Source: Escherichia phage 4MG. From it: 64,000 bases of DNA. The position numbers and the translations under genes were made by a program. The stretch is taken from sequence record NC_022968.1; one strand, 5' to 3'. Below the pieces are notes generated by a model. The model was not told the origin of the DNA. It saw only the letters and a program-made list of their open reading frames with translations, and made no database searches. Positions 3,267 to 19,984 of the stretch are shown piece after piece; position 1 is the first letter of the stretch; each line of letters begins with the position of its first letter.

Positions 3267-3512
3267 TTAGACTGTCCGGAAGATTCGGAGAGCGTACTTG
3301 ATCGTGGAATCACCGTCAACGGGGTAGAAATAGTATAAGCCGCCTTCTTCTCCGAAGGATGCAACATATTTCCAGGTTTCAATGCCGTAGCCAGTCGTAG
3401 TAAAAGCGATATCATCAGCTTCTTCAGTCGCTTCGTCCAGGGTTGGGTGATGTGATTCGTGCTCAAGATACTCTCCATTATCAGATTTGTGTACAAGTTT
3501 AAGTTTAAACAT
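3267..3512 (-). CDS. hypothetical acidic protein (81 aa)
   Basis: Track ORF on the block strand; no motif recognised. Confidence 0.4.
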   Translation of the reverse strand: MFKLKLVHKSDNGEYLEHESHHPTLDEATEEADDIAFTTTGYGIETWKYVASFGEEGGLYYFYPVDGDSTIKYALRIFRTV

Positions 3513-3591
3513 AATGACCTACCGTTAGTTAATTAAGAAATCGAGTTGTTTCGATAACTTAGATCTTATCAGCGGTCACTATTTTTGTCAA

Positions 3592-3837
3592 TCAAACAAT
3601 GCCAGAGTCCTTGACACCCCGCGAATACTCTGCTATAGCCAGCTTTTGCTCTGGCGTTAGCTCTTCTTCATCCTCTTTCGGGTTCTCGATCTCAAGGAAA
3701 TGTTCCTCAAGTCCGTCAAGAACATCTGGTTCCCACGCTTTCTTCTGGTCTGTGTGTACAGAAGCACGATTAAAATCGTTTTTTGCAACGTAATTACGCA
3801 CTGAAATCAGACCCCTTAATCTGTTTTTCGGTTTCAA
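3592..3837 (-). CDS. hypothetical protein (81 aa)
   Basis: Track ORF on the block strand; overlaps end of 3794-4105. Confidence 0.4.
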   Translation of the reverse strand: MKPKNRLRGLISVRNYVAKNDFNRASVHTDQKKAWEPDVLDGLEEHFLEIENPKEDEEELTPEQKLAIAEYSRGVKDSGIV

Positions 3838-4105
3838 CGAGGTCTACATTCCCCGTTTTCGTGTTTACCCAGCGGGTTTCTGTCTTTGTTGCGTGCATTG
3901 TATGTCCACAACCAAAGGAAATGATGCAAACACCTGGGCCGTGGGCTTCAAGATCAGCTTCAAATTCCTGTTTACAGACTTTACACTCCATCATCACTGG
4001 TCCAAACATCTTAGGCTCCTTAATATAATATGGATTTGTTGGTGTGTTATTACACGTAAGGCAATCTCGTACTGGGACTTCATGCCACTTGCATGGATTT
4101 TCCAT
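3794..4105 (-). CDS. hypothetical Cys-rich protein, zinc-ribbon-like (103 aa; true start may be internal Met)
   Basis: Track ORF; CKVCKQ ... CGH cysteine pairs. Confidence 0.4.
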   Translation of the reverse strand: MENPCKWHEVPVRDCLTCNNTPTNPYYIKEPKMFGPVMMECKVCKQEFEADLEAHGPGVCIISFGCGHTMHATKTETRWVNTKTGNVDLVETEKQIKGSDFSA

Positions 4106-7533: not shown

Positions 7534-7757
7534 GTCTCTCCTCCATAGCCTATACTCAAATTGACACTAAGCCTAGTCTCAAATTGATAACAGAAATAAA
7601 TACTATATAAAATAAATAAAACAATACTCTTTTAAAAAACAATAAAACATAAGATCTAAAAACAAGATCTTTTAGTATGATCTATATATTCTACTATCAA
7701 AGAGTCGCTGACTCGATGGAACGCAGTATGAATGAACAAAAATGTGCTGTCAAGTGG

Positions 7758-14996: not shown

Positions 14997-15005
14997 GGAG
15001 AATCA

Positions 15006-15695
15006 ATGAGTAAGGTTTACGAAACACTTTTAGCGATGACAAAACCAACAGATCTGTACGCATATGCGGAGCATGTTATCGAATGGAACCATGTTGCATA
15101 TCGTGCTCGCAATAATGTGGCAACACCATTCGATCTGCAATGGGGCTTTATTCGTGAAGAATTCAACGAACTCGTTGACGCACTCCGTGTTGGTGACCGT
15201 ATCGAAACTGTTGACGCTGCCTGTGATCTCTTTGTTGTAGCTTCATACGCTTGCCAGTTGAAGAGTCCTGAGTATCTTCGTGAAGCCTGTATTCCTTCAC
15301 CGACACTGACGTTCACTATTGGCGATCTTGAGCACAACCTGTATGGCAATATGCGAGACCCGGTTTATGTTCTTAAGCTGGTAACTGCATTATGTTATCG
15401 CCTTGATATTAATCTTGACTACAATATGCGACAGGTGTTACATTCAAACGATACCAAATACCCATATGTGCAAGATATCCTTGCCTTGTGGCCTGGTAAG
15501 GCGAAAGCCGAAGCTTTACGTCAAGAATGTAAGGCAATCGAAGATCGTTCCAATGGTCGTTATGAGGGTGTTGGTTTCCGCGAGGTAATTGATATCCGCA
15601 ACCCGGATGTTAAAGGTTCACGCCTTGTCTTCTTCGATAGAAACGGAAAAATCATGAAGCCAAGCACTTTCGAAAGTCCGAAAATTATTGCTTGA
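15006..15695 (+). CDS. mazG: MazG-like nucleoside triphosphate pyrophosphohydrolase
   Basis: 229 aa; EExxE-type motif REEFNELVDA followed by ETVDAACD. Confidence 0.55.
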   Translation: MSKVYETLLAMTKPTDLYAYAEHVIEWNHVAYRARNNVATPFDLQWGFIREEFNELVDALRVGDRIETVDAACDLFVVASYACQLKSPEYLREACIPSPTLTFTIGDLEHNLYGNMRDPVYVLKLVTALCYRLDINLDYNMRQVLHSNDTKYPYVQDILALWPGKAKAEALRQECKAIEDRSNGRYEGVGFREVIDIRNPDVKGSRLVFFDRNGKIMKPSTFESPKIIA

Positions 15696-15719
15696 CAATG
15701 GATAAGGGGTCTGTATAAT
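15692..15719 (+). promoter_or_regulatory. strong sigma70-like promoter TTGACA-N16-TATAAT
   Basis: Consensus hexamers read directly, 30 nt upstream of 15750 ORF; coordinates +/-2. Confidence 0.55.
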
Positions 15720-15749
15720 GGCCCCTATCAAGACAGAGAGGAGAAAGCA

Positions 15750-15971
15750 GTGGAAGAAATTATTGATTACCCAGAGATTATTGCGTTAGCTAATCGCCTC
15801 GGCATTACTATCGTCAGTCGTGGTCCAAATACACGTTATCTGATCCGCTTCACCATGAAACGTCGCTGGGGTGGCGCTAAGAAGTACGCTTACGAATGTA
15901 CGCTTGGCACACTGACAGCGTATGTTGACCAGATTGAGCGCTCTGGTGGAAAGATTGTCGGCATTGATTAA
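15750..15971 (+). CDS. hypothetical protein (73 aa)
   Basis: Track ORF. Confidence 0.45.
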   Translation: MEEIIDYPEIIALANRLGITIVSRGPNTRYLIRFTMKRRWGGAKKYAYECTLGTLTAYVDQIERSGGKIVGID

Positions 15972-15977
15972 AAGTGT

Positions 15978-16005
15978 TTGACAAAAAGAATTAAAAAGCT
16001 ATACT
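15978..16005 (+). promoter_or_regulatory. sigma70-like promoter TTGACA-N16-TATACT
   Basis: Hexamers read directly upstream of 16039 ORF; coordinates +/-2. Confidence 0.5.
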
Positions 16006-16038
16006 GAACAGACTAAATAAACAGAGGAGAAACAAAAC

Positions 16039-16401
16039 ATGGCACGTACCGCAAAAATCAAAGTAGCACTGATCACCTCCCTGCCTTCTGACCCGGCATC
16101 CCGCGAGCGTCTGAAGTCAACCGTTAACGAAATCGTTGATCTACAGCGTCAAATCGCTGACCTGAAAGACCAGATCAAGGACATTCGTGCTGTGGAAAAA
16201 GAAAACCACAACATCTCTCCTAAGTTCCTGAATTCTCTGGTAAAACGTGAGTACGATGTGCGTTATGAAGCAGAGAAGAAGACTGCTGCACTCGATGCAG
16301 AGCAAGAGATCTTCACCGAAGCGGATATCCTGTTCGGTCGCGGCAAGCCTGCAAATGTCGCACAAACCGAAGAAGATGACGGTGCTGAGGACGCTGAATA
16401 A
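16039..16401 (+). CDS. hypothetical protein with acidic C-terminal tail (120 aa)
   Basis: Track ORF, GAGGAGA SD; coiled-coil-like, tail EEDDGAEDAE. Confidence 0.5.
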   Translation: MARTAKIKVALITSLPSDPASRERLKSTVNEIVDLQRQIADLKDQIKDIRAVEKENHNISPKFLNSLVKREYDVRYEAEKKTAALDAEQEIFTEADILFGRGKPANVAQTEEDDGAEDAE

Positions 16402-16592
16402 TGAAACACTACCTTAACGCTGTTGGTATCTTCCTGTTTATCTGCATCACCTTTGGCGTCGGTGTTCCGACGCTGGTGTCAGCGAAAGATACCCTGATGC
16501 TGTGTGCTGGTTTTGCATGGATCATCGCAACACCTGCAATCGTGTGGTATTGGGCGAGAAAAGCGTTCTTCCCTAAAAAATCGGAGGCGTAA
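16401..16592 (+). CDS. small membrane protein (63 aa)
   Basis: Track ORF; two hydrophobic segments. Confidence 0.45.
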   Translation: MKHYLNAVGIFLFICITFGVGVPTLVSAKDTLMLCAGFAWIIATPAIVWYWARKAFFPKKSEA

Positions 16593-16756
16593 TGTTACTA
16601 AACCTGAAAGCGTCTACCTGGGAAAAGTTGCAGCACTTAGCGCGAGTTAAGAATAAGTCTGCTGCTGCCCTTGTAGCAAAAATTGTTGACGAACATGTTG
16701 ACGAGAAAGTAAAAACTACCTATAAAATTGAAGAGGAGAACCAAACCAATGCTTAA
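16592..16756 (+). CDS. ribbon-helix-helix-like small DNA-binding protein (54 aa)
   Basis: Not in track; TAATG coupling; N-terminal pattern LNLKASTWEKLQHLARVKNKSAAALVAKIV resembles Arc/CopG RHH fold. Confidence 0.4.
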   Translation: MLLNLKASTWEKLQHLARVKNKSAAALVAKIVDEHVDEKVKTTYKIEEENQTNA

Positions 16757-17639
16757 GAATATCAAACGTGTGATTTTTGCTGGCCTGATCGCTCTGGGTG
16801 CCGTTGGCCTGACTGGTTGTGAACGTGCAACTGTCCCGGCAGGTTATGTGGGTGTGAAGGTTGACCTGTATGGCGACGAAAAGGGTGTTCAGCAGCAGGA
16901 AGTGGGTGTTGGTAAATACTGGCTGACCTGGAACGAAGAAATCTATCAGTTCCCTACATTCAACCAGTTAAACAACTACGACCAACCGTTTAACTTCCAG
17001 ACCAAGGATTCTATGACGGTCTCTGCGAAGGTTGGTGTTGAGTATTACGTTGACCGCTCCAAGGTCACCAAGATCTTCCAGACCTACCGTAAAGGTGTTC
17101 AGGAAATCACTGATGTCAACATTCGTCAGAACATCTCTGATGCACTGATCAAAGAAGCGGGTACGATGGATATCGGTACGCTGGCTGGCGATGGTAAATC
17201 TCAGCTTCTGGATCGTGTGACGAAGACCCTGAAAGCGAAGCTTGACCCGATTGGTATCGTGATCGTGAAACTGTCTTACACTGATGATCTGCGTTATCCA
17301 CCACAGGTAACCGCATCCATCAACGCGAAGATCGAAGCGACTCAGAAAGCGCTGCTGCGTGAAAACGAAATCCAGCAGACCAAAGCTGAAGCTCAGAAAC
17401 AGATCGAAGCCGCTCGCGGTGAAGCTGAATCTAAGCGACTGCAAGCTCAGGGTGAGGCAGATGCTAAAGTAGCACTGGCAAAAGGTGAAGCAGAATCCAT
17501 CCAACTGCGTGGTGATTCTCTCCGCAAAAACCCAGAAATTATGCAACTGGAAGCGATCAACAAGTGGAACGGTGTGACCCCGGTCTATATGACCAGCGGT
17601 TCTCAGACCCCATTCGTTACCCTGCCAGCAGGTAAATAA
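16749..17639 (+). CDS. SPFH (band-7/prohibitin-like) domain lipoprotein
   Basis: 296 aa; lipobox LTGC after hydrophobic signal; SPFH-like core followed by long Ala/Glu/Gln coiled coil. Confidence 0.7.
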   Translation: MLKNIKRVIFAGLIALGAVGLTGCERATVPAGYVGVKVDLYGDEKGVQQQEVGVGKYWLTWNEEIYQFPTFNQLNNYDQPFNFQTKDSMTVSAKVGVEYYVDRSKVTKIFQTYRKGVQEITDVNIRQNISDALIKEAGTMDIGTLAGDGKSQLLDRVTKTLKAKLDPIGIVIVKLSYTDDLRYPPQVTASINAKIEATQKALLRENEIQQTKAEAQKQIEAARGEAESKRLQAQGEADAKVALAKGEAESIQLRGDSLRKNPEIMQLEAINKWNGVTPVYMTSGSQTPFVTLPAGK

Positions 17640-17702
17640 GAGTTGACAAAAGGCCCGGTGATAGATTATCATCGGGTCTCAACTTAACAAAGGAGATACA
17701 AA

Positions 17703-17897
17703 ATGATCCGCACAACAATTCTTTTAGCAGTAGCTCTGCTCTCTTCTCCGGCGTTCGCCACAGTTAATACACTCTCTTTGGTAGATGAATACACCGATGG
17801 GAGTTCTAAAGTATGCATCTACAGCGACGGTAACCGTACCGAAAGCGTTGTGAAAGAAGGTGCTGGCTCATGTCCGTCTAAAAAGACGTTCCACTAA
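17703..17897 (+). CDS. small secreted protein (64 aa)
   Basis: Track ORF; signal peptide ending AFA. Confidence 0.45.
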   Translation: MIRTTILLAVALLSSPAFATVNTLSLVDEYTDGSSKVCIYSDGNRTESVVKEGAGSCPSKKTFH

Positions 17898-17908
17898 GAG
17901 GATGAACC

Positions 17909-18415
17909 ATGAGAGTAACTGATCAGCATGTTTTCTTCTTCACTTATCGTGATATGTTCAGCAACCACTTTCGACAGATAATTCCTATTCGTTGTGGTGG
18001 CTATGAGTTCTTCACGGTGGAGCACTTTATGATGTTCCAAAAAGCAATGCTCTTTGATGACAAAGAGATTGCTGCACGTATTGCCACAGTTGATAATCCA
18101 AACGAGGCAAAAGCGCTGGGTCGTAAAGTCAGGGACTTTGACAACAGTGTTTGGGAAGAAAACAGAATGGACATTGTAACAAACGGTCTTGTTCTGAAAA
18201 TGAAGGCTAACCGCTCTATTCTGGAGTCTGCACTGACTCACAGAGATGCTGGGCGGCGATTTGTAGAGGCATCCCCGTATGATGCAATCTGGGGTGTAAA
18301 ACTGAATGAATATGATCCACGCATTGATGATCCTGCTAACTGGCAAGGTCTTAATCTTCTCGGTGAGTGCTGGGAAAGAGCAATTGATGTTGTGATCGCA
18401 GCTTCGTGGAGGTGA
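17909..18415 (+). CDS. NADAR-domain (YbiA-like) protein
   Basis: 168 aa; motifs MFSNHF, TVEHFMMFQKA, DAIWGV, GLNLLGECWERA matching the YbiA/NADAR pattern. Confidence 0.75.
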   Translation: MRVTDQHVFFFTYRDMFSNHFRQIIPIRCGGYEFFTVEHFMMFQKAMLFDDKEIAARIATVDNPNEAKALGRKVRDFDNSVWEENRMDIVTNGLVLKMKANRSILESALTHRDAGRRFVEASPYDAIWGVKLNEYDPRIDDPANWQGLNLLGECWERAIDVVIAASWR

Positions 18416-18416
18416 G

Positions 18417-18854
18417 TTGAAATTAGAGATTGAACTTGTTCCAAAAACAGCTTGGTTTACTAACTTACGCTCTCACCTCACTAAATCCCAATGGGATGTC
18501 GTAAGAAAGAAATGCTATGCCAAAGCCAATTACAGATGTGAGATTTGTGGTGGTAAAGGGAATAAGCACCCTGTTGAGTGTCACGAAATCTGGGACTTTG
18601 GTAATGGTAAGATCACGCTGAAAGGTCTTATCGCGCTCTGCCCGTCATGTCACGAAGTAAAACATATCGGCCTTGCTGGTATTCGTGGAAGAGGAGAGAT
18701 TGCCCTTCGTCACTTCATGAGGGTCAACAATGTCTCCCGACAGGTTGCAGAGAAATACGTGAGCGAGGCATTTGCCTTGTATCATGAACGGAGTAAGCGA
18801 GAGAAATGGGAACTGGATGTCCGGTATTTGGACGAGTATTTGAGTAACGATTGA
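18417..18854 (+). CDS. HNH endonuclease (homing-endonuclease-like)
   Basis: 145 aa; CEICGG ... HPVECHEIWDF ... CPSCHEVKH HNH/zinc motifs. Confidence 0.7.
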   Translation: MKLEIELVPKTAWFTNLRSHLTKSQWDVVRKKCYAKANYRCEICGGKGNKHPVECHEIWDFGNGKITLKGLIALCPSCHEVKHIGLAGIRGRGEIALRHFMRVNNVSRQVAEKYVSEAFALYHERSKREKWELDVRYLDEYLSND

Positions 18855-18862
18855 GAGGGCTA

Positions 18863-19984
18863 GTGGGATATCCGTATGATAAAGATTGGAAAAATAAAGT
18901 CACGAATGACTGTGTGATCGCTTTAGACCTTGACCAGACTTGCTTTGTGTCTGCTGCTGGCGCTGAGAAGCGCACAATTAAGGCAACACACATCGCCTCT
19001 GGCAGGGAAAAGATCTTCAAAAACAGAACAGAATTCTGGGGTTCCACCAAAAGGGTGGTGGGCGGTTGGCTAAAAGACCAAAACGCCAATATGGAAATTA
19101 AGGCAAAATCCGAGGGTCGTGAATTCACACCTTGGGGACGCGATGACTTCCTGATTGAGGATATTCAGACTCCGGAACCTGTTGAAAACTGTCTGCACAT
19201 CCTGAAAACAAAGATCAACGCGATCTTTGAGCACTTAGAGATGGACAGCCAGTATGGTATGGGCGTGTTGGGTGGGGAAAATAACTTCCGTCTACTACTG
19301 CCTGCACCAGAACGCTATAAGGGTAACCGTGAGGACACCCTACGTCCTAAACTGTTACAGGAAACGCGTGATTACGTCAAGAAGAAGTACAAGGCAAAGG
19401 TAATTGACGGAGTAGAGGCAGATGATTATCTTTCTGTCCTGATGAATACCGGGTGGGAGTTCTACCAGGCGACTGGCAAGTTCAACTACATGGTTGCATC
19501 CTTCGACAAAGACCAGAAAGGAACGCCGGGGCTTCTGTTCGACACCATGCGGGACAGTGAAGAGAGATCATGGAAACATCCTATCCCTATGGTCATTGAT
19601 GACTCTATGGGTGAGATTTGGATGGAAGGTAATAAGGTTAAGGGTTGGGGACGTAAGTTCTTCGGCTACCAGATGCTCTGTGGCGATAGCTCAGATAACA
19701 TCAAGCCTTATCAGTGCTTTGACATCTCCGGACGATTTGGTGATACCGCCGCATTCAACCTAATCGGTCATTTACAGACTGAAAAGGATATGTGGACAGC
19801 TATTGTTGACCAGTATAAGACCTGGTTCCCTCAGGGTGTGGAGTTTACATCGTGGGATGGAACACAGCGTAAAATGAGTGCTGGTCAGTGGGCTTCGATC
19901 ATCTTCCAGATGGTATACATGAAGCGCACAGCCAACGATCCAACAACTCTGGCAACAGAACTGCGTCGTGTGGGGGTTTTATGA
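18863..19984 (+). CDS. 5'-3' exonuclease / flap endonuclease (RNase H-like)
   Basis: About 373 aa; N-terminal CVIALDLDQT, catalytic GVEADDYLSVL and helix-3-turn-helix CGDSSDNIKP motifs; GTG start after GAGAGGG SD. Confidence 0.8.
   Translation: MGYPYDKDWKNKVTNDCVIALDLDQTCFVSAAGAEKRTIKATHIASGREKIFKNRTEFWGSTKRVVGGWLKDQNANMEIKAKSEGREFTPWGRDDFLIEDIQTPEPVENCLHILKTKINAIFEHLEMDSQYGMGVLGGENNFRLLLPAPERYKGNREDTLRPKLLQETRDYVKKKYKAKVIDGVEADDYLSVLMNTGWEFYQATGKFNYMVASFDKDQKGTPGLLFDTMRDSEERSWKHPIPMVIDDSMGEIWMEGNKVKGWGRKFFGYQMLCGDSSDNIKPYQCFDISGRFGDTAAFNLIGHLQTEKDMWTAIVDQYKTWFPQGVEFTSWDGTQRKMSAGQWASIIFQMVYMKRTANDPTTLATELRRVGVL

Follow-up and report, generated by a model that had tools for sequence, protein, structure and literature searches.

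A phage SPFH lipoprotein gene appears near-obligately paired with a gene for a tiny two-pass membrane protein

As organisers of membranes, SPFH proteins are universal, but what they do in bacteria is poorly defined. Here, we analyse a 64,000-nucleotide (nt) stretch of Escherichia phage 4MG (NC_022968.1), hereafter the window, in which an SPFH/Band-7 lipoprotein of 296 amino acids (aa) is encoded on the plus strand at 16749..17639, and we identify a neighbouring membrane-protein gene as its probable partner. That gene (16401..16592), hereafter mini-TM, encodes a 63-aa inner-membrane protein with two transmembrane (TM) segments. Following it on the same strand are the gene for a probable ribbon-helix-helix (RHH) protein of 54 aa (16592..16756), the SPFH gene and the gene for an exported small protein of 64 aa (17703..17897), hereafter sec. 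An earlier note on this DNA, whose left boundary lay at 16592, had cut off mini-TM and read the RHH-like gene, the SPFH gene and sec as one module. The SPFH gene and all four small genes of the region are under purifying selection; their pN (0.01–0.34) lies far under their pS (0.28–0.82), and all five are therefore real genes. The window open reading frames (ORFs) have the same starts as in the RefSeq annotation of Cronobacter phage GAP31, including the SPFH ATG at 16749, which also agrees with the N-termini of homologues.

By sequence, the 296-aa protein belongs to the SPFH superfamily. Pfam Band_7 (PF01145) matches residues 28–215 with 77.3 bits against a gathering cut-off of 23.6 (E=1.9e-21), and phrog_200, annotated 'lipoprotein', matches at E=7.7e-91. 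The N-terminus has a positive n-region, a hydrophobic core and a lipobox (residues 1–24, MLKNIKRVIFAGLIALGAVG-LTGC), with L-T-G-C at residues 21–24 fitting the pattern [LVI][ASTVI][GAS]C; the lipoprotein signal is in this sense a sequence-motif call. These matches bear out the lipoprotein with a band-7/SPFH core described in the earlier note. About one third of the homologues lack the lipobox cysteine and have an uncleaved hydrophobic anchor instead, which would place those members at the inner membrane with the domain in the periplasm. Phage SPFH proteins are already annotated as 'lipoprotein' or, wrongly, as 'serine protease', the latter error recurs among the SPFH proteins of phages and prophages and probably goes back to the label 'membrane protease subunit'.

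An AF2 model of the SPFH protein (pLDDT 79.6) consists of an N-terminal helix, an alpha/beta SPFH domain (residues ~26–177), a helix at 185–260 and a short helix at 262–272. The long coiled coil predicted earlier corresponds to helix 185–260, which is modelled as one continuous helix of 76 residues. The C-terminal tail is conserved, with the pattern W-x-G-x-x-P...P-F, and is disordered in the model. A PDB sequence search matched QmcA, HflC and prohibitin, and Foldseek matched the model over its full length to HflC, prohibitin, stomatin, HflK, erlin, QmcA and flotillin (E 3e-14 to 1e-8; 264–313 aligned columns, 255–272 for flotillin), with HflC as the top fold match. The model thus shows a full-length cage-former architecture of membrane anchor, SPFH domain, long helix and C-terminal cap. 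HflK (TIGR01933, E=2e-11) and HflC are the best named sequence relatives, but both equivalog cut-offs are missed by a wide distance (TIGR01933, 43.8 versus 159.4 bits; TIGR01932, 26.2 versus 134.4 bits). Only one SPFH ORF is present in the window region and in related loci, where an HflK/HflC-type paralogue pair is absent, and on its sequence we classify the protein as not an HflK/C orthologue.

The mini-TM protein matches phrog_1130 (E=6e-25) and no Pfam or NCBIfam family at E<=0.1. The positive-inside rule gives it an N-in/C-in topology with a basic C-terminal tail, and a conserved motif, V-P-x-L-V-S-A-K-D-T, lies on the periplasmic side. No NfeD/OB-fold domain was found in it; at 63 aa, it is too short for an OB fold. 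A relationship to YjeT (DUF2065) was considered and rejected (hhalign probability ~1%).

The gene neighbourhoods of distant homologues place mini-TM beside SPFH. In a Salmonella prophage (L002), the SPFH gene sits between an ssDNA-binding gene and DNA polymerase A; its neighbours in an Aeromonas phage are small genes without an assigned function. Each of these two SPFH genes has its start overlapped by a 63–70-aa ORF, whose translation aligns with the window ORF 16401–16592 and not with the 54-aa ORF. We surveyed this linkage with jackhmmer in 98 further loci from viral and genome collections, detecting SPFH in 102 loci and the two-TM protein in 74. All of the other 28 SPFH loci carry a divergent 58–64-aa two-TM ORF at the same position, which keeps the motif [VIL]-P-x-[LM]-[VILMF]-[SN]-[SAMT] with an invariant proline. 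By comparison, the RHH-like, secreted, reg (a regulator-like gene upstream of mini-TM) and NADAR proteins were found in only 8–10 loci each, all of the Vequintavirinae type.

Dereplication at ~90% identity yielded 27 SPFH lineages, including prophages, phage-plasmid-like contigs, an Acinetobacter plasmid relative and an Aeromonas phage. A 55–75-aa two-TM neighbour is present in 27/27, against a background of 2.4% of the other small ORFs in these loci that satisfy the mini-TM criteria. The ORF abuts or overlaps the SPFH start in 23 lineages and lies 140–780 nt upstream in the other four, three with the 54-aa RHH gene inserted and one with an IS1 insertion. Overall, the pair occurs in at least 414 phage records, many of them mutually unrelated, spanning Vequintavirinae, N4-like, LUZ24-like, phiCbK-like and crAss-like phages. 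In Bruynoghevirus DL54, mini-TM lies two genes upstream of SPFH, and in the phiCbK-like phage CcrSwift a larger multi-TM protein overlaps the start of a 'band 7 lipoprotein'. The Stx2a-converting phage Stx2_EH1846 (LC567840; L103) has an unannotated mini-TM copy (3316–3504) that overlaps the SPFH gene, which is labelled 'serine protease'.

In Shigella flexneri and E. coli chromosomal prophages (L098, 3234–4000; L099), an insertion of 768/777 nt parts mini-TM from SPFH. We rejected an inserted gene or RNA as the explanation of this ~770-nt gap in favour of IS1, which we take the element to be from its size and from minus-strand ORFs resembling InsA/InsB, and this insertion likely uncouples the pair in these prophages. 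An Rfam scan of 15000–19000 and of L098 returned nothing within the cassette region. Taken together, the sequence comparisons identify mini-TM as the conserved partner of the SPFH gene. We found no description in the literature of a near-obligate pairing of SPFH with a tiny two-pass membrane protein; phage SPFH lipoproteins are already known, and what appears to be new is this pairing with a partner that is often unannotated.

Gene-order variants separate the pair from its neighbours. The window type reads reg / mini-TM / RHH / SPFH / sec. In the Escherichia phage 19-1-2 type (L109) the order is reg / mini-TM / SPFH / sec, with the RHH gene absent; in a metagenomic relative (L112) it is reg / mini-TM / SPFH (ATGA overlap) / RHH (81 aa) / a 173-aa gene / sec; and in Salmonella phage SSBI34 it is reg / RHH / sec, with mini-TM and SPFH both absent. 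Mini-TM and SPFH are therefore co-present or co-absent, whereas RHH and sec persist without both and RHH moves. Judged from these arrangements, RHH and sec belong to the backbone of this phage group independently of the pair, and in this lineage the RHH gene simply ended up between mini-TM and SPFH. The module of the earlier note, in which the RHH protein regulates while the SPFH lipoprotein and the 64-aa protein form one envelope system, can point to the adjacency of its genes in the window and ~60 close relatives and to the 8 nt shared by RHH and SPFH. We consider it very improbable: L109 has mini-TM, SPFH and sec without RHH, L112 has RHH downstream of SPFH and two other genes ahead of sec, SSBI34 has reg, RHH and sec without SPFH, and outside this phage group 0 of ~90 other SPFH loci have an RHH or sec gene. 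The proposed operator motif of the regulator, AGATCT, is also unenriched (see below).

SSBI34 (MZ520832; L107/L108) is a natural 'SPFH-less' comparator. Its reg homologue (3568–3936) and a 58-aa zinc-ribbon ORF (3360–3536, both in L107 coordinates) lie in a stretch without an annotated coding sequence in the deposited record.

The 54-aa ORF starts with an ATG that overlaps the mini-TM stop codon (TAATG) and shares its final 8 nt with the SPFH start, which confirms the overlap and the ORF coordinates given in the earlier note; it is a lineage-specific gene whose family is limited to Vequintavirinae-type phages. The Arc/CopG-like character assigned to it is plausible, although every Pfam and NCBIfam match is sub-threshold: RHH_4 (E=0.02; matched in 7/9 orthologues, best 0.006), RHH_5 (best 7e-4), RHH_7 and an NCBIfam RelB-like antitoxin model (0.004). 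An exhaustive profile search recovered relatives of 75–106 aa with the pattern N-[FL]-x-x-x-T-Y-x-K-L-x-F-L-A-x-x-E-G-[KR]-S-V-A-A-Y-V, whose matches to RHH_5, RHH_7, FitA-like and ParG are likewise all sub-threshold. A PDB profile search with close orthologues only found nothing relevant, and a profile (A3) with the distant relatives added matched the RHH structures 1x93 (HP0222, E=0.006) and 4hv0 (AvtR, E=0.069) over residues 1–36. The beta-alpha-alpha pattern of the first ~36 residues resembles Arc/MetJ/CopG RHH proteins, and the relatives carry a G-[KR]-S turn; in the 54-aa protein itself, by contrast, N-K-S replaces G-x-S. The AF2 monomer (9-sequence alignment; pLDDT 66) has two helices and no strand and, being of low confidence, was not used for a fold search; the RHH strand forms only in the dimer. 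The protein is likely an RHH DNA-binding protein by these sub-threshold matches. No toxin family was matched that would make it part of a type II toxin-antitoxin system, its neighbours being the two-TM protein and the SPFH lipoprotein.

The earlier suggestion that this protein might bind AGATCT-containing operators did not hold up: the motif occurs 24 times in the window against 17.0 +/- 4.5 expected, with at least 24 in 8/100 shuffles. Two copies 13 nt apart (7652–7657 and 7665–7670) form the sole clustered pair among the 24 and may be what was meant by operators. No direct or inverted repeat is common to the promoter regions, and there is therefore no shared RHH operator candidate.

The 64-aa protein (phrog_4641, E=9e-32) has the n-h-c signal peptide that the earlier note had recognised, MIR / TTILLAVALLSS / PAFA|T, with an A-x-A cleavage site evident by inspection. 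Across orthologues, the N-terminal region is variable yet always hydrophobic, and the mature part of ~45 aa is conserved with two invariant cysteines; from its sequence, the protein looks exported and is predicted to be a small periplasmic disulfide protein. Its 48 homologues come, wherever the source is named, from phages of this group, and their contigs, where long enough to judge, reach ~161 kb.

A sigma-70-type promoter on the plus strand, TTGACA-16-TATACT (15978..16005; 11/12 consensus), heads reg, mini-TM, the 54-aa gene and SPFH. In related loci (L001, L006–L011, L083, L109), the spacer differs in sequence but its length and the hexamers are conserved, and the promoter keeps its position even where SPFH identity is down to 50%. 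The four genes overlap or abut and thus constitute a single early operon, transcribed by the RNA polymerase of the host. In the Salmonella prophage and the Stx phage, the cassette lies within early/replication operons with no promoter of its own.

Between SPFH and sec lies a 19-bp hairpin (17640..17686, plus strand; dG -23.6 kcal/mol, z -7.2) that holds both hexamers of a promoter-like sequence, TTGACA-18-TATCAT (17643–17672, plus strand). L011 and L083 keep a hairpin at the same position, with a compensatory A-U to G-C change and no promoter hexamers, and the hairpin is therefore the conserved element. The promoter earlier placed ahead of the 64-aa ORF thus stands as an 11/12 match to consensus, but with its hexamers inside a stable hairpin it may act on RNA instead of as a promoter. 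At 15692–15730, a consensus-like promoter (TTGACA-16-TATAAT) likewise has a GC-rich inverted repeat over its -10 hexamer. The two sites may represent a recurrent promoter/hairpin design of this phage group, or promoter-resembling RNA processing or termination sites.

The window is that of a Seunavirus-type (Vequintavirinae) virulent myovirus. Region 16000–18500 is matched at 80–95% nucleotide identity by 57 phage records, all Vequintavirinae-type myoviruses of ~135–172 kb, with GAP31 (Seunavirus) as the best full-length match (85%); in Escherichia phage 4MG, gp234 and gp232 have the sequences of the 54-aa and the 64-aa protein, respectively, each at 100% identity. The first gene of the operon, reg (16039..16401, plus strand), encodes a 120-aa 'transcriptional regulator' (phrog_639, E=6.5e-22) and is outside the SPFH cassette: all Vequintavirinae-type variants have it as their upstream neighbour, whether SPFH is present or, as in SSBI34, absent. 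It also has a weak, sub-cut-off match to Pfam Phage_DsbA (E=0.0039); T4 DsbA is a double-stranded-DNA-binding late-transcription factor. DNA-metabolism genes surround the cassette (DNA ligase, MazG-like pyrophosphohydrolase, NADAR, HNH, exonuclease, endonuclease VII and ThyX). Downstream lie a NADAR-domain protein (17909–18415; Pfam E=6e-34) and an overlapping HNH endonuclease (18417–18854); NADAR is absent from the L109-type relatives. Because NADAR enzymes reverse DarT-type DNA ADP-ribosylation, the NADAR gene could be a counter-defence gene.

Relative to GAP31, an island of divergence at 16081–16670 has 61–73% nucleotide identity versus 85–97% in the flanks, and spans the 3' part of reg, all of mini-TM and the 5' half of the 54-aa gene. 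Identity to the GAP31 counterpart is ~61% for the mini-TM protein and 97% for the SPFH protein. Synonymous sites are saturated within the island only, which, with the unequal identities of the two proteins, points to recombination or mosaicism and not to relaxed constraint.

We propose, with a probability of about 0.6, that the functional unit at this locus is the two-gene cassette of mini-TM and SPFH, encoding a periplasm-facing cage and a membrane partner that together condition the inner membrane. The two genes would be transcribed early from the conserved sigma-70 promoter at 15978 as part of one tightly overlapping operon. Membrane-attached cages are known for HflK/C, QmcA-YbbJ, prohibitin, stomatin, erlin and flotillin. 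By analogy with these and with the structurally characterised full-length SPFH proteins in general, the lipoprotein would use its long helix and C-terminal tail to assemble as a ring or cage on the membrane, at its periplasmic side as HflK/C do. Translated together with it, the mini-TM hairpin would then be a membrane-embedded partner or client of the cage, on the precedent of HflK/C-FtsH and QmcA-YbbJ, with its conserved P-x-L-[VI]-S-[SA] turn positioned at the periplasmic leaflet for docking of the SPFH domains. Such a complex might remodel or fence part of the inner membrane while the phage grows lytically. The envelope-directed role put forward in the earlier note survives here for the parts, in the SPFH lipoprotein signal, the HflK/C-like periplasmic topology and the exported look of the 64-aa protein, but not for the three genes as one module.

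Known SPFH systems resemble the phage cassette in part. E. coli HflK/HflC share its SPFH domain, long wall helix, C-terminal cap and a bulk predicted to be periplasmic, but are a gene pair, anchored by an N-terminal TM helix and linked to FtsH, whereas the phage has one gene and a lipid anchor. QmcA faces the cytoplasm, whereas the phage SPFH protein is predicted to be exported. SPFH-NfeD operons (QmcA-YbbJ, PDB 8z5g; PH1511-PH1510) likewise couple an SPFH gene to a small membrane-protein gene; in the phage, by contrast, the partner has 63 aa, lacks an NfeD/OB fold and lies upstream instead of downstream. In E. coli, the 65-aa two-TM gene yjeT directly downstream of hflKC recalls mini-TM in its SPFH linkage, but differs in gene order and in the longer loop between its TM segments. 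In B. subtilis, the membrane proteins YdjG/YdjH recruit the SPFH protein YdjI, which tethers PspA (SamGHI; PMC8581546; bioRxiv 10.64898/2026.02.06.704340). SamGHI, too, encodes membrane partners with SPFH in one operon and has a role in membrane stress and repair, but its SPFH protein is cytosolic and its partners are unrelated, and the phage locus has no PspA-like gene.

Several points weigh against the two-gene proposal. Cage formation is deduced from architecture, physical contact between mini-TM and SPFH is likewise an inference, and the adjacency of the genes could arise from co-regulation instead of a complex. The SPFH lipoprotein has Glu at position +2 and Arg at +3 and so lacks the inner-membrane retention signal (Asp at +2); under the E. 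coli Lol rule, Glu at +2 predicts sorting to the outer membrane, which would part the lipoprotein from a partner in the inner membrane. Across the family, the +2 residue is E, D, G or another, and some members have no lipobox. The Pasteurella protein PM0222, the one prophage protein of this description studied by experiment, which we set beside the SPFH family by its published description as HflK/C-like and not by sequence comparison, is found in outer-membrane vesicles (PMC9872710). Among the five proteins, none has a Pfam or PHROG match to the known exclusion families (T4 Imm/Sp, Cor, Llp, SieA), and PADLOC returned only SspF at E=0.035, which we take as noise. The reason for SPFH in phage genomes is unclear according to a 2026 paper (PMC13239085).

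What the cassette would be for is a matter of guesses, led by superinfection exclusion or membrane protection and followed by modulation of FtsH. Our literature search found speculation on phage SPFH proteins and no functional study: an HflC-like moron has been suggested (PMC10269572), and in PhiSH19 the SPFH gene stands one position from an annotated superinfection-exclusion gene in a table of selected genes (PMC3220722). Tentatively, the purpose may be protection of the infected cell's inner membrane, through exclusion of superinfecting DNA or of membrane-damaging effectors. It is somewhat more doubtful that the pair is a hitherto unrecognised and very widespread phage early-gene device whose cage on the host inner membrane blocks the entry of competitor DNA or neutralises membrane-targeting abortive-infection effectors.

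Alternatively, the phage SPFH protein could mimic or invade the periplasmic HflK/C cage of the host and so alter FtsH proteolysis of phage or host membrane and regulatory proteins, with mini-TM as a pseudo-substrate or adaptor aimed at FtsH. FtsH is a known phage target, as with lambda CIII, the HflK and HflC families are nearest by sequence with HflC as the top fold match, and the periplasmic topology is that of HflK/C. A similar speculation was made by the authors of the CSP3 phage paper (PMC10269572). We nonetheless think this unlikely, given an HflK score far under the equivalog cut-off, a single SPFH gene in place of a K/C pair, and the frequent occurrence of the family in strictly virulent phages, which have no lysogeny to control.

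Two further readings look weaker. Mini-TM resembles a class II holin hairpin in its length (55–75 aa), two TM segments, N-in/C-in topology and basic C-terminal tail, and an SPFH cage could sequester it or another holin in an antiholin-type control of lysis timing. Of the functions guessed at in the earlier note, lysis timing is the one we favour least, because the cassette lies amid early/DNA-metabolism genes wherever neighbours were identified (the window and GAP31, Salmonella prophage L002, Stx2a phage L103) and no lysis gene is adjacent in any locus inspected; with an early sigma-70 promoter driving the cassette and no SPFH-holin link found in the literature, it is very unlikely. The Glu at +2, which predicts Lol export to the outer membrane, would also suit a surface or lysogenic-conversion lipoprotein, at the outer membrane or in vesicles, that alters the host surface or virulence while its TM neighbour is incidental, and PM0222 in outer-membrane vesicles affects virulence (PMC9872710). 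This is highly improbable: most carriers in the phage collection are virulent, the two prophages examined hold the cassette inside lytic operons without its own promoter, the homologues with uncleaved anchors would stay at the inner membrane, and the near-universal tight coupling to an inner-membrane protein would go unexplained.

The correct unit for experiments is thus the mini-TM and SPFH pair and not the trio. If the reading of the pair as a widespread early-gene device is true, it would provide the first assigned function for a viral SPFH protein and a non-NfeD class of partner for SPFH cages. Should the pair form a periplasmic cage that protects or fences the inner membrane, phages would have a widespread and new kind of device for host takeover or exclusion, and SPFH cage biology would gain a compact two-protein model.

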